The notes under the pieces are model-generated. The model saw nothing but the letters and a program-made list of their open reading frames with translations, had not been told where the DNA came from and ran no database searches. 5,833 nucleotides of DNA. Origin: a virus (lineage: Duplodnaviria; Heunggongvirae; Uroviricota; Caudoviricetes). Each line of letters opens with the position of its first letter. Position 1 is the first letter of the stretch. Made by a program: the position numbers and the translations under genes. The stretch is taken from IMG/VR virus record IMGVR_UViG_2734482593_000003. The stretch is one strand, 5' to 3'. This document shows positions 1,435 to 5,833 of this stretch, in pieces.

Positions 1435-3168
1435 TTAAAGCGAGCGGATCCCGTAGGACTCAATGTGGTCAGACAGCGTGTCTTCTTTCTCGTACAGCAT
1501 GGCTCTGCCAACCGCCATAATCAGCGCAACTGCACCATCGATTTTGTTTTCCGCCTGCTCTTTGACGGGTTTCACCACATCATCGTTACCCGGCATGTTT
1601 TTGCCGACCACGTTGCCGATACACCAGGTCATGATGGGATTGCCGTCATGATGAAAACGTCCCGATTCAATCGCTGCTTCCAGCTCTTTCATCGGATCGG
1701 ACATATTGGTGAAGTTCTGGACGATAGTGACGGGATTCAGGTCTTCATCAGCAAGGTCATGTGACAACCCGGTCGCCCCGAAGGGGTCGATGGGTGACTC
1801 ACTGACCGGGCTGATTTTGTTCGCCGCTTTGGCCTCCTCGAGGATGTAGCGATAATCCACCTCCGCACCATCGGTAACGGTCAGAACGCCCATTTCCACC
1901 CATTTCTGAAAGCGTTCGGCTGTCCGTCGATCTTCATTTTTCTCGACGCTGTACACCGTGTCATACGGTACCCAGAAACGCGGGGCCACACTGTAGTAAT
2001 GCGTTTTACCGTCAATCTCGCGGGTATAAAGTCGCGCCATGCTGTTCATATCCAGCTTACGCGCCAGGTCAAAGGCCAGAATGCACGGCTGCCCCTCGAA
2101 CTGCTCAAGGGTCAGTGATTTATCCTCGCAGCTCTGCCAGCTCACCAAGTTGAAATACGCCGAACGCGCCGACACCCAGATATTGAGGTGTTTTGTTTTA
2201 AAGACGTTTGCCAGACGGGCGTTATTTTTCGCACGCTGCTGCTGACTTAACAAAAATTCGCGATAAACCGACACGCCAATATTTGGATTGGCTTTTTCCA
2301 GCACCTGCGGGCCGGTCCAGTCGTCACCTTCATCAACGGTATAGATGATCCCGAACAGTTCATCGTTAGGCACCGAGCCGTTGAGCATCTCGATGACTTC
2401 CCGCCGCTTGTCGTAGCACGGCCCCTCAATGTTGTACCCGGCGGTGGTGATGGCCCACATCAGTGGCTGACGTCGCGCCCCCATCCCGGTAAGCATTGTG
2501 GTATAAAGCGCATCGGTGGCATGCTCGTGATATTCATCAACCACGGCACAGTGGGGTGATGAACCATCACCTGGGTTGCCGATCAGCGGTTCAAACCGCG
2601 CGCCATCCTCCGGACGGTTCATGTTTGAGGCGTTAACCTCAATCCCGAACGCTTCCGTCAGCATGGGTGTGCGTTTACACATCAGTCGCGCCGGGCGAAA
2701 GACTTCCCACGCCTGTTTCTCTGTCGTGGCACCGGAATACACTTCCGCGCCAAACTCGTTATCACAGGCAAAACAATACAGGGCAACACCGGCAGAGATT
2801 GCTGATTTGCCGTTCTTACGGGGGATTTCGGTGTACACCTCCCGGAAGCGGCGCAACCGGGTGCCTTTATTGACCCAGCCAAACGCACAGCAGATCACAA
2901 ATAGCTGCCACGGCTCCAGCGTGATGGGCATCCGTTTGAATGCCCACTCCCCCTTGGTGTGCGGCAACAGCTGAATAAATTTCGCGGCCCGTTCAGCCAG
3001 GTCCTTGTCGAAGCGGTAACGAAACGACTTACTTTTTTCCGCCATCAGGTCATCAAGATGGCGCTGGCAGGCCTGAATCACAAACTGGCAGGCAACAATC
3101 TTTCCGCGCACGACATCCCGGGCATACTGATTTGCAGCATTTACGTTGGGGTAAGATTTCCGGCTCAT
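1435..3168 (-). CDS. terL: Phage terminase large subunit (577 aa)
   Basis: Long ORF with ATG start 3168..3166 in an ATGA overlap with the upstream terS stop. Walker A-like PRKNGKS near the N-terminus, acidic motifs (VVDEYHE) and a C-terminal nuclease-like region. Sits between terS and portal as in HK97-like head modules. Assigned from recalled family features. Confidence 0.95.
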
Positions 3169-3659
3169 GATTCGATAATTTTCAGAAACGGGTTAGTGGC
3201 TTTCTTCTGCCCCGCCAGGCCAATCAGACGCTGGCGGCTGCTGGGGTCGAGTCCGAGCATTGCCCCCGTGCTGCTCATCTCGGACTCCTGTTCTTTTTTG
3301 GCGGTCAGCTCCGGATTTTTGACCCTGCCGCCCATTGCACCGGTGATGGTGTTGCCCTGTATGGCAATATTTTTCACGGCACGTCGCCAGAACTCATAGG
3401 CCACGCACCACCGCTCAAGTACCGCCAGGTCAGTCACGCACAGCAGGCCCTGACCGCAGAGTTCTTTGGTTGTCAGTTGCCACATGATCGTGGCGAGAGG
3501 GAGATCTTCTTCAGCGAACCACTCTGGTGGCTCAACACCTTTGATGGGCGTAAAAACAGGTTCATCTTTGTTCAGGGCTCGCTTGCCGGGGTTTCCGGCC
3601 AGCGCCTTGCGCGCCGTTGGCTTGGGGCGACGCCCGGAACGCCCCGCCGTTCCAGCCAT
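3165..3659 (-). CDS. terS: Phage terminase small subunit, P27 family (164 aa)
   Basis: N-terminus [27 protein letters not shown] is characteristic of P27-family small terminase subunits. I chose ATG 3659..3657, which has AGGAG 8 nt upstream, over the GTG at 3668 used by the ORF track. Stop TGA 3167..3165 overlaps the terL ATG. Confidence 0.85.
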
Positions 3660-3780
3660 ATGCGGCACTCCTGGTTAAATTTCATTTTTCGCGGGTATAA
3701 AAAAACGATGGGGCGGGCAGTCCGGAAGACGTCAGGTCACAGGGATTTGCCCCGCCCCTCCCTACAAGTGAGAATAATTA
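3660..3780. other. Putative cos / packaging-recognition region between the HNH and terS genes
   Basis: 121-bp intergenic region in the position where HK97-like phages carry cos (HNH gene - cos - terS). Contains a perfect 8-bp GC inverted repeat GGGGCGGG (3710-3717) / CCCGCCCC (3751-3758) separated by 33 bp, flanked by A/T-rich tracts. Assignment is by position and composition only. Confidence 0.4.
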
Positions 3781-4131
3781 TCACCGGATTCGTTCGCGCG
3801 CTGTTTTCGCTTTATGGCAGGGCCAGCACAGACTCTGCAGGTTGCTGTCTGCGTCTGTTCCGCCATGCGCTTTCGGGATGATGTGGTCGACGGTTTTCGC
3901 CTCGCTCACCACACCGACACGCAGACACAACTGACACAGACCTTTATCGCGCTTCAGAATACGGGCACGAATCACCGTCCATTTTGAGCCATAGCCACGC
4001 TGGTGGCGGCTCAGTCCGCGCTGGTGCTGCACCCAGCCTTCACCGCGATGTTTATCGCAGTAACCCGAACTGTCTGTGGTTGTACCTGCACATCCACGCT
4101 TACGGCAGGCACGTGGGATTAGTGATGGCAT
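3781..4131 (-). CDS. HNH endonuclease, phage packaging-associated (116 aa)
   Basis: ATG 4131..4129 with GAGGT 7 nt upstream. Cys-rich zinc-finger-like N-terminus (CRKRGCAG...C) and HNH motif DHIIPKAHGGTDADSNLQSLCWPCH. Located directly upstream of terS, as HK97 gp74. Confidence 0.9.
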   Translation of the reverse strand: MPSLIPRACRKRGCAGTTTDSSGYCDKHRGEGWVQHQRGLSRHQRGYGSKWTVIRARILKRDKGLCQLCLRVGVVSEAKTVDHIIPKAHGGTDADSNLQSLCWPCHKAKTARERIR

Positions 4132-4173: not shown

Positions 4174-4521
4174 CTACTTAATGCACTGAGTGCGGATATA
4201 CTCCTGTGCCCCTTCCAGTTGCATCTGCATCGTCATCAGCCGCTCTCTGAGGGTGAAATAATCCCGTTCAGCGGTGTCTGCCAGTCGGGGGCTGGTTGCA
4301 TTATCCACGCCGGAGGCGGTGGTGGCTTCACGCACTGACTGACAGACTGCTTTGATGTGCAACCGACGACGACCAGCGGCAACATCAGCGCGCAGAGTTT
4401 CATTTTCAGCTTTCGCAACTTTGTAGGTAATGGCGTTATCACGGTAATGATTAACAGCCCATGACAGGCAGACGATGATGCAGATAACCAGAGCGGAGAT
4501 AATCGCGGTGACTCTGCTCAT
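4174..4521 (-). CDS. Rz: Rz i-spanin (inner-membrane spanin subunit), shortened variant (115 aa)
   Basis: From ATG 4521..4519, which overlaps the R stop as ATGA, the product [34 protein letters not shown]... matches lambda Rz as I recall it through residue 34, then resumes at AKAEN...[25 protein letters not shown]. About 39 residues of the periplasmic coiled coil are absent relative to the 153-aa lambda Rz. The ORF track starts 4 codons earlier at GTG 4533. Confidence 0.85.
4236..4403 (-). CDS. Rz1: Rz1 o-spanin (outer-membrane lipoprotein subunit), embedded in the +1 frame of Rz
   Basis: Near-identical to lambda Rz1 as recalled: lipobox LVVVGC followed by [43 protein letters not shown] 4403..4401 is taken as the start; alternative starts are TTG 4418 (the position aligning to lambda Met1) or GTG 4442 (ORF track). 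Confidence 0.8.
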
Positions 4522-5015
4522 TGCTGCCCCCACAAACAGACTTCACGCTCAATCTCACGACGGGTCATCAGCCCTTTCCATTGCTTACCGCCAGCATATG
4601 TCCAGCGACGTAGCTGGTCACATGCGCCTTTGATATCGCCCTGGTTTATTTTGCGAAGAAGCGTCGATGTTCTGAAATTGCCAGCGCCCACGTTGTAAAC
4701 GAACGAGTAAAGAGCGCCGCGCGTTGTTTCCGGTATATCGACTTTGATGTACGGGTTAATTTGTCTGGCGACAGTGGCAAGGTCTTTATTCAGGAGGGCT
4801 TTGCATTCTGCTTCGGTATACGTTTTACCGAGCATGATGTCTTTTCCGGTGTGTCCGTGACATACAGTCCATACACCAATGATATCTTTGTATGGTATGT
4901 AGCTGACACCTTCCAGACCATCGTTACCACCTGGGCCAGTGATTAACACAGATGCTATAGCAACAGCCCCACCACCAATAGCAGCTGCAACAGCCTTGCG
5001 TAATGATGGCGACAT
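4518..5015 (-). CDS. R: SAR endolysin (phage 21 R-type lysozyme, 165 aa)
   Basis: Near-identical to the phage 21 endolysin as recalled. Gly/Ala-rich N-terminal signal-arrest-release segment ([24 protein letters not shown]), followed by catalytic Glu/Asp/Thr spacing (GLEGVSY...[12 protein letters not shown]). ATG 5015..5013 overlaps the S stop as TAATG. Confidence 0.95.
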
Positions 5016-5230
5016 TATTCACCTCTCGCAGCCTTACGCTTGTCTTCTCTTATTTTGAAATACAGATTTGTCAGATAAGTCAGAAGCCCCAGAAGCAGAC
5101 TTCCCAGCACACCAATCGCAGCCCACTGTGATGGACTGACCTGATCCAACCACTGCAAAAACCAGTAGCCGGCACTGCCGGCGGAGGTGCCGTAGGCAAT
5201 GCCTGTTGATATTTTTTCCATCTGATACAT
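5015..5230 (-). CDS. S: Pinholin, phage 21 S-type (S21/EssD family), dual-start (71 and 68 aa forms)
   Basis: [71 protein letters not shown]: two TM helices and a basic C-terminus, matching S21/EssD as recalled. Two in-frame ATGs at 5230 and 5221 (Met1 and Met4) give the dual-start motif. G-rich SD-like sequence lies upstream. Confidence 0.95.
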
Positions 5231-5261
5231 ATCCCGCCCCCCGACAGACCTGTGCTATCGG

Positions 5262-5296
5262 AAAGAAAAAAGGCCATCAGCAAAACTCTGATGGCC
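5262..5296 (-). terminator. Rho-independent terminator just upstream of the lysis cassette (candidate late-operon terminator tR')
   Basis: Perfect 9-bp stem GGCCATCAG (5272-5280) / CTGATGGCC (5288-5296) with a 7-nt loop. On the minus-strand RNA it is followed by UUUUUUCUUUC (plus 5271-5261). It lies 32 bp upstream of the S start codon. Confidence 0.6.
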
Positions 5297-5833
5297 TGAA
5301 TCACCTTTACCAATATTGTATGAAAAAACACGCACGACTAATTGACAATAATTTTCATTTCCATTAAAAAAGATCGCGTAGCATTCTTAATTCATGAGGA
5401 ACTTTACCCGCCAGCAATCTGAGTAGCGAAAGCTGTTCATCCCCAATGTTTTTGCTGGCGGGTCCTTTTTTCTACGGTCCTCCTCCCCGGAGGGGGGCAT
5501 TTCATTATTTTTCTAATCGTTACTGGTGAGAAGGCGGAAGAAAAAGCCAGTTCTTCGCCCCTAAATAACAGCATGATTCCAGTCCATGCAAAATCTGATT
5601 TCCAGCTCACACATACCGAGCGCTGTACAAAAAACCGCCAGCCAAGGCAGTTAAGAGTGTGTTCCCGGGGTTTGCTTAGAATATTTTGTAAGTTGTCCGA
5701 AGAGATATTTACAACACCAGAATGATGCATTATCAGTCCCCTGCCAGAGGTTCACTACGTAACCTGACCGACAATGAAGTGGCACACTGAATTTGGCCAC
5801 CTGAACAGAGGTGATATGCTCACCTCAGAACAA

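Follow-up and report, generated by a model that had tools for sequence, protein, structure and literature searches.

The window analysed here, a stretch of 5,833 nucleotides, covers the late region of an Escherichia coli lambdoid prophage whose genes lie on the minus strand. Its layout is defined by the following features:

1435-3168, minus strand, large terminase
3165-3668, minus strand, small terminase
between the small terminase and Rz, minus strand, HNH-like open reading frame
4174-4533, minus strand, Rz
4518-5015, minus strand, lysozyme RrrD
5015-5230, minus strand, class II holin
5271-5297, minus strand, late-strand intrinsic terminator of 10 bp plus T6, called by terminator scan 40 nt upstream of the holin start
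5777-5833, IS911 left end, with 100% identity to the corresponding end of the IS911 on Shigella pCP301

Upstream of the holin gene are 546 bp without annotation, and the predicted small RNA (sRNA) element described here lies within this interval. IS911 at 5777 interrupts the prophage between the holin-upstream block and a tRNA cluster known from relatives; uninterrupted relatives continue with this tRNA cluster, an ORF6N gene and a Q-like DUF1133 gene. The terminator scan detected seven terminator-like sites in 4900-5833, against 1.0 expected. The late-strand terminator at 5271-5297 is kept across variants and forms the left edge of a conserved block; to its left, the sequence diverges in the prophage remnants of the uropathogenic strain CFT073 and of ColV-type plasmids. 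Analogous hairpins precede the holin at the locus of the prophage sRNA PasA and in K-12 DLP12. The late transcript must presumably read through this terminator to get to the holin gene, which we assumed to occur by Q-dependent antitermination.

The element and its immediate surroundings contain the following parts:

5342-5347, plus strand, -35 hexamer TTGACA, by direct reading
5344-5362, Fur-box-like 19-mer GACAATAATTTTCATTTCC (reverse complement GGAAATGAAAATTATTGTC), at promoter positions of about -33 to -15
5365-5370, plus strand, -10 candidate TAAAAA, weak (4/6, without T at -7)
5377-5471, plus strand, predicted sRNA of about 95 nt, start ±2 nt, end inside the U-tract
5384-5401, plus strand, 5' hairpin P1 (UUCUU 5384-5388 / AGGAA 5397-5401) with the invariant loop AAUUCAUG
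5406-5463, plus strand, terminator hairpin with a 12-bp outer stem (5406-5417/5452-5463) and a 34-nt loop
5410-5416, plus strand, GCCAGCA in the terminator 5' arm
5420-5427/5432-5439, plus strand, inner stem of 8 bp with a GAAA loop
5435-5444, plus strand, conserved motif GUUCAUCCCC inside the terminator loop
5464-5471, plus strand, CC followed by U6 (T6 at 5466-5471), kept in all variants
5477-5498, plus strand, second GC hairpin of 9 pairs with a 4-nt loop and a T-rich tail to about 5513

An earlier reading of the letters without database searches (the sequence-only reading) had proposed a plus-strand promoter with TTGACA at 5342-5347, TAAAAA at 5365-5370 and a spacer of 17 bp. Direct reading bears out both hexamers and their spacing; what had been missed is the Fur box that overlaps them. 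TTGACA by itself is not significant against chance, and a generic promoter scan made no call at 5342-5370 because the -10 hexamer has no final T. The promoter is raised above chance by the conservation of TTGACA, spacer length, TAAAAA and total length. TTGACA is invariant in 17 of 17 distinct variants, including a diverged subfamily (V) in which the flanking bases are different. TAAAAA and the 17-bp spacing are kept in types I-VI; with the spacing unchanged, subfamily V reads TAGAAA or TGAAAA. From the -35 hexamer to the end of the terminator, the length is a constant 135-138 nt in the 17 distinct variants, again with the diverged subfamily included. Neither the scan nor the comparison with relatives revealed a conserved minus-strand promoter at the element. 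The minus-strand promoter match at 5532..5504 was rejected, since indels of 3 to 10 nt in relatives break its spacing.

The ends of the RNA were placed by analogy and from the sequence. PasA and PasC (EcOnc51/52) are prophage sRNAs from EPEC and EHEC that depend on Hfq (Pearl Mizrahi et al. 2021, PMC8550237; Zhu, Shabalina and Storz 2026, bioRxiv 10.64898/2026.05.13.724894). Their mapped 5' ends lie exactly 30 nt past the last base of a TTGACA, and we therefore put the probable start of the predicted RNA near 5377, taking the -10 candidate into account as well. The intrinsic terminator suggests an end near 5471. For this terminator, the sequence-only reading had described a perfect 11-bp stem around a 33-nt loop, with arms at 5407-5417 and 5451-5461. 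The 5' arm CCCGCCAGCAA is indeed at 5407-5417 and the pairing is perfect, but the 3' arm TTGCTGGCGGG is at 5452-5462, the loop measures 34 nt, and the stem grows to 12 bp once A5406-T5463 is counted. As had been noted, the stem is followed by CCTTTTTT. With 12 bp, 8 G-C pairs and CC + U6, the hairpin has the composition of an intrinsic terminator, on the plus strand only. Loops of this length (34 nt) are unusual in intrinsic terminators, and the atypical loop, which is partly an inner hairpin, is why the standard terminator scan missed the site. Folding of the plus strand at 5372-5515 yielded -49.7 kcal/mol (z = -3.8; 0 of 200 shuffles as good), compared with -40.9 kcal/mol (z = -2.1) for the minus strand.

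The second GC hairpin, also described in the sequence-only reading, is present with its T-rich tail, but it is not conserved and is no defining part of the element: the length of its G-run ranges between 4 and 6 in copies that are nearly identical, and types II-IV have a disrupted stem. It is possibly a back-up terminator in the window's variant only. A plus-strand open reading frame of 10 codons (MRNFTRQQSE, 5394-5426) is uninterrupted and ends at the same stop codon in every type I-VI variant. The Rfam/Infernal scan that had been suggested as a check was run on the whole window (Rfam 15, cmscan, E<=1) and returned nothing but a chance mir-200 match inside the terminase gene; the RyhB family RF00057 had no match in it.

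To describe the distribution of the element, we used a 261-nt query around it, which was present in 1427 of 5426 complete E. coli genomes (26%), at 915 chromosomal and 643 plasmid places. A phage collection of 50,697 records gave no matches, even at blastn sensitivity. Sequence types comprise I (the window), II (e.g. AR_0086 and APEC/NMEC strains), III (CFT073 and 83972), IV (ColV-type plasmids) and VI, besides subfamily V. The flanks are about 83% identical between types, and 5380-5475 is nearly invariant, as is the outer stem. The block persists in decayed remnants without holin and lysozyme. In CFT073 such a remnant lies in an island between iha and the pap operon, with IS3 and ISL3 fragments on its flanks; on ColV-type plasmids it is bordered by iss with Rz fragments on one side and by an IS on the other, with iroB 2.5 kb away. 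Overall, the element tends to occur on ExPEC/APEC chromosomes, pathogenicity islands and ColV plasmids. Among GTDB species representatives, 2 of 62 holin loci contain the element (one Escherichia coli and one Shigella flexneri genome), which makes deep covariation unobtainable. The only antisense promoter-terminator modules at these 62 loci are of the PasA type (E. albertii) or belong to this element (E. coli, Shigella).

Several further observations concern the relatives and the surroundings of the element. One IMG/VR contig carries two whole-element copies (at 106 and 1386), 1280 bp apart, which may reflect an IS-associated duplication or an assembly effect. No conserved minus-strand open reading frame runs across the element. 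A 97-aa minus-strand frame at 5437-5730 was rejected as not conserved, its frame being broken by indels, and the same holds for a 63-aa 'hypothetical protein' annotated in some relatives (in one of them at 1456-1647), which is moreover absent from the window. The type VI variant has a second sRNA-like unit 190 nt downstream on the same strand as the element (about 1700-1808 of its record), with CTTGCA, a spacer of about 18 bp, TACTAT and a terminator GCCCGCG/CGCGGGC + T7; a PasA/C covariance model matched this unit with E = 0.037, and the window has no equivalent of it. The inter-type conserved block runs for about 140 nt past the sRNA terminator at about 85% identity; this part (5520-5611) has no conserved open reading frame and contains an imperfect hairpin GGCGGAAGAA...TTCTTCGCC. 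On the minus (late) strand, a terminator-like hairpin at 5633-5652 (AACTGCCTTGGCTGGCGGTT + TTTTGT) lies in a section specific to the window's prophage type.

The diverged subfamily V was retrieved by a stem-anchored scan of IMG/VR. It keeps TTGACA, the 17-bp spacer and the T-run, and the distance to the hairpin is 67 nt, compared with 66 nt in the window. The V hairpin is 54 nt long with identical arms, and the 9-mer GTTCATCCC stands in register in both. Apart from the retained hexamers, stem arms and 9-mer, subfamily V has a sequence of its own: the spacer, the 5' portion of its RNA and the interior of the loop all differ, and the inner GAAA hairpin is not retained. The next outward pair of the stem, which was outside the search pattern, is C-G in the window and G-C in V, a compensatory change. 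The sequence-only reading had named conservation and compensatory changes in the stems as a check on its proposal; across relatives the long stem is kept, with this one compensatory pair between the window and V. A covariance model (R1) built from types I-VI only recovers V at E = 1e-3 to 0.6. In its own setting, V directly follows the stop codon of a SASA (NanS-p type) esterase gene, in antisense orientation, and precedes DUF1378 and the holin.

The 19-mer at 5344-5362 matches the Fur consensus GATAATGATAATCATTATC at 14 of 19 positions and is the best site of the window. Types II-IV match at 16/19 and one type II copy at 17/19; the bona fide ryhB box reaches 15-16/19, and none of 383,734 background positions in prophage DNA reaches 16/19. 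We also scored the sites with a position weight matrix built from 13 ChIP-supported CFT073 sites. At 17.5 bits, the window outscored every one of the 383,734 background positions (maximum 16.9), and its relatives scored 18.5-22.9 bits, compared with 20.8 for ryhB, 5.0 for subfamily V and -3.0 for PasA. The window's box is thus the weakest of its family by both measures.

The Fur ChIP-seq data for CFT073 place a summit at the homologous promoter. Table S5A of Banerjee et al. 2020 (PMC7157518) lists a summit at NC_004431.1:3,440,893 with an amplitude of 3620, above those of chuA (3245), entS (3485), fepA (3285) and cirA (3050), and assigns it only to 'c3597 transposase'. We found that the TTGACA of the near-identical CFT073 type III element begins exactly at 3,440,893, with the Fur box at 3,440,895-3,440,913. 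The neighbours of the summit are IS fragments and an Rz remnant only. By this tabulated summit, which coincides with the element's TTGACA, Fur occupies the promoter of the CFT073 homologue in vivo, at a place with no protein-coding gene to regulate. This evidence pertains to the type III variant, whereas the window is type I. The element is absent from the published CFT073 expression tables because the RNA is unannotated, and the main text of the Fur pan-regulon paper (PMC10164565) does not mention the site. A second Fur-like site of the window, ACAAGTGAGAATAATTATC at 3764-3782, scores 14.7 bits, above the 99.999th percentile of the background, and lies at the 3' end of the HNH-like open reading frame, roughly 100 nt before the small terminase gene. 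It has the 15-mer GTGATAATTATTCTC in common with a CFT073 site about 20 bp from a peak published as 'nohA' (1,424,721, amplitude 283). From these sequence matches, Fur may touch the packaging end of these prophages too.

A bound promoter need not make a functional RNA. The element could be a relic, either a Fur-bound promoter and terminator left from a lost iron-regulated moron gene, or a non-productive Fur site next to a hairpin that acts as a transcription stop or insulator. The mosaic, IS-ridden surroundings and the weak -10 hexamer fit such a history, and so does the composition of the CFT073 data set, in which about half of the 349 Fur peaks fall outside intergenic regions and few are tied to regulated genes. 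However, a relic does not account for the length from -35 to terminator, held at 135-138 nt in 17 variants with V included, for helix substitutions that maintain plus-strand pairing (see below), for loop motifs kept between subfamilies, or for retention in 26% of genomes, including remnants stripped of neighbouring genes. We therefore consider the relic unlikely.

The Fur site could instead govern leftward, late-strand transcription to the holin, either through a minus-strand promoter with its -10 hexamer TATTGT within the Fur box (the ryhB arrangement) or by acting as a roadblock to late transcripts, and the plus-strand hairpins would then be incidental. Indeed, the minus-strand box of type II (GAAAATGATAATTATTGTC) is close to the ryhB promoter box (GAGAATGATTATTATTGTC), and the strong late-strand terminator 50-70 nt to the left could end an RNA of about 75 nt. 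The box is nearly palindromic, though, so its orientation is uninformative. In addition, the minus strand is without a usable -35 hexamer, and the candidate -35 region varies between types (on the plus strand AAGATC in I, AATACC in II and AAGACT in III). The promoter scan shows nothing there, its sole minus-strand match being the one at 5532..5504 that is broken by indels in relatives. This explanation is quite improbable.

The sequence-only reading had itself left two possibilities for the stem-loops, namely an antisense transcript of about 95 nt opposing the late operon, or RNA structures within the late leader itself. We compared the two strands by the fraction of paired cells. For P1, outer and inner stem together, 98.5% of the cells are paired on the plus strand and 86.5% in the minus-strand mirror. 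The difference stems from P1 (100% vs 77.5%) and the inner stem (96.9% vs 73.4%), while the outer stem is 99% paired on either strand. All three one-sided changes in P1 keep plus-strand pairing, as U·G or U-A, and the G·U pairs and one-sided substitutions of P1 and P3 become A·C if read on the minus strand. In the 5' helix of subfamily V, 3 of 3 varying columns likewise lead to wobble pairs on the sRNA strand. The outer stem is split, with one substitution favouring the plus and one the minus strand; a G-to-A change in a plasmid variant is A·C when read on the plus strand but G·U when read on the minus strand. Two-sided compensatory changes are found neither within the main family, in which 8 distinct rows offer low diversity, nor within V. 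For these reasons, the no two-sided changes per subfamily and the split outer stem, the strand evidence from the alignments is coherent but modest. The U-tract after the stem and the consensus -35 hexamer exist on the plus strand only.

A role of the long stem-loop in the late minus-strand mRNA, for instance in its processing or stability ahead of the holin, would turn the apparent plus-strand promoter and terminator into coincidences. Such a role could draw on the symmetric outer stem, on the plasmid variant, whose substitution is tolerated on the minus strand only, and on a minus-strand fold with z = -2.1. Nevertheless, no U-tract or recognisable signal follows the stem on that strand, the inner stem and P1 are paired there at only 73% and 78%, and the plus-strand fold is better (-49.7 vs -40.9 kcal/mol). 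Such a role would leave both the Fur site and the fixed distance of the invariant TTGACA unexplained. We regard a late-leader structure as very improbable and disfavour this branch of the earlier proposal. The antisense transcript is favoured by the pairing bias, with which V agrees, by the plus-only U-tract and -35 hexamer, by the precedent of PasA and PasC in the same slot and orientation, and by the tabulated in vivo Fur binding at the homologous promoter of CFT073. That the transcript encodes the 10-residue peptide MRNFTRQQSE (ATG 5394 to TAG 5426) is scarcely credible, because the frame, although kept with its stop position in all type I-VI variants, has no Shine-Dalgarno sequence, undergoes non-synonymous changes at 5 of 10 codons (R/K, N/K/S, F/H/Y, S/P, E/K), is lost in subfamily V and lies mostly inside the terminator stem.

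We then compared the element with known sRNAs. The closest in setting are PasA and PasC of EPEC E2348/69, which are Northern-validated RNAs of 79-85 nt between esterase and holin on the opposite strand, a position recorded for PasA as '> < >'. Like the element, they are located beside the class II holin-lysozyme cassette of a lambdoid prophage and run against the late operon. TTGACA, a 17-bp spacer, an A-rich -10 region and an RNA of 80-95 nt are common to both, as are terminator arms of the form GCCAGC(A/G)...(C/T)GCTGGC plus a U-run. Subfamily V resembles PasC also in directly following an esterase stop codon, whereas the window's copy has no esterase neighbour. For PasA, the seed GCCAGCACCU and the target motif CUGnUGCUGGC have been reported (Fig. 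S5 and Table S7 of PMC8550237); the seed has the heptamer GCCAGCA in common with the 5' arm of the element at 5410-5416. This shared heptamer is a lead, no proof of common targets. In local alignments scored against dinucleotide shuffles, the element gave z = 0.55 with PasA and z = -0.62 with PasC, compared with z = 53 for PasA against PasC as a control. Model R1 of the element family found no match on PasA or PasC, and a PasA/C model (R2) found none in the window at E<=10. As the alignments and both covariance models were negative, we rejected membership in the Pas family. Furthermore, PasA and PasC are without a Fur box (10/19, -3 bits), their terminators lack the 34-nt insert, and they occur in EPEC/EHEC, unlike the element with its leaning to ExPEC/APEC, pathogenicity islands and ColV plasmids.

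RyhB (RF00057), the Fur-repressed and Hfq-dependent sRNA that spares iron in enterobacteria, is similar in size and promoter layout. It has about 90-95 nt, a Fur box of similar strength over its promoter (20.8 vs 17.5-22.9 bits) and an intrinsic terminator with a U-tail and the arms AGCCAGC/GCUGGCU. The body of the RNA is different, however, the element is without the RyhB seed, and it resides on mobile elements rather than in the core genome. GCCAGC/GCUGGC is present in the terminator arms of RyhB, PasC, PasA and the element, which by sequence could reflect shared ancestry of a terminator module or coincidence. The anti-sRNAs AsxR and AgvB are convergent sRNAs in a moron site downstream of PR' (Tree et al. 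2014, PMC4104026). They too are prophage-borne between Q and the lysis genes, and some are antisense to late transcripts. They are Hfq-associated, 51-60 nt long and represented by Rfam RF02702 and RF02703, which have no match in the window (Rfam 15, E<=1), and no Fur control is described for them. Short phage transcripts that oppose a major operon are otherwise exemplified by lambda oop, the anti-Q RNA from PaQ and P22 sar, all of them able to act in cis on the overlapping mRNA, at positions and with sequences that differ from the element. None of the three is known to lie upstream of a holin or to be iron-regulated. The prophage sRNA svsR of NC101 (PMC12803456) is a different element, co293-like and at the cI 3' end, and the nmpC-essD intergenic region of K-12 DLP12 has no similarity to the element. 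A full-text literature search for fragments of its sequence found nothing, and we found no description of it in Rfam, in RefSeq features under the matches or in the papers on Pas, EHEC anti-sRNAs, svsR and Fur regulons.

Taken together, we give a probability of about 0.6 to the reading that 5342-5471 is a plus-strand sRNA gene, repressed by Fur, whose predicted product of about 95 nt ends at an intrinsic terminator. No rival explains at once why the geometry is fixed, why pairing favours the plus strand and why Fur occupies the promoter. In the best-supported classification, the element is a new family in the holin-proximal slot of the Pas sRNAs, of kinds that are already known: the prophage-borne Hfq-type sRNA and the Fur-repressed sRNA. 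We infer that the RNA is produced, that it is repressed by Fur and bound by Hfq, and which targets it has.

On the sRNA gene reading, a sigma-70 promoter (TTGACA, 17-bp spacer, A-rich -10) would start a plus-strand RNA near 5377, about 150 bp upstream of the class II holin gene and opposite to the late operon, and the 12-bp GC-rich stem with U6 would stop transcription near 5471. Since the spacer and part of the -35 hexamer form the Fur box, Fur-Fe2+ should occlude the promoter when iron is present, and iron starvation should induce the RNA. The predicted layout, a short 5' hairpin, an A/U-rich linker and a terminator hairpin with a U-tail, would be the usual one for Hfq binding. Most likely the RNA acts by base pairing. 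Candidate contacts are two conserved UUCAU(G/C) motifs, in AAUUCAUG (the P1 loop) and in GUUCAUCCCC, where UUCAU could pair with complementary AUGAA start-codon regions, and the GCCAGCA heptamer of PasA's seed in the terminator 5' arm. The predicted RNA is perfectly complementary to late-operon RNA upstream of the holin, and cis action on the late transcript is thus possible. A crude duplex search for local trans targets in the initiation regions of the window's seven late genes performed no better than shuffles.

A wider proposal, doubtful but worth stating, is that lambdoid prophages, ExPEC islands and ColV plasmids carry a mobile Fur-controlled riboregulator, a second iron-starvation sRNA beside RyhB. 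It might use the PasA-like seed, the anti-start-codon UUCAU motifs or both on host or virulence mRNAs, and in intact prophages it might link iron starvation to control of the lysis cassette, through pairing with the late transcript immediately ahead of the holin.

If true, the sRNA gene would explain one of the strongest Fur ChIP-seq peaks of CFT073, listed in the published table as a transposase fragment only, and would place an iron-responsive regulatory RNA among the accessory genes of roughly one in four sequenced E. coli. The slot before lambdoid holin genes repeatedly houses antisense sRNA genes, and here it would do so with a different regulatory input. The element is near the siderophore-receptor gene iha in CFT073 and near the iro iron-uptake genes and the serum-resistance gene iss on ColV plasmids. 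RyhB is an example from uropathogenic E. coli of how Fur-controlled sRNAs shape the iron economy and the production of siderophores; a mobile one could therefore alter virulence-related regulation between strains.
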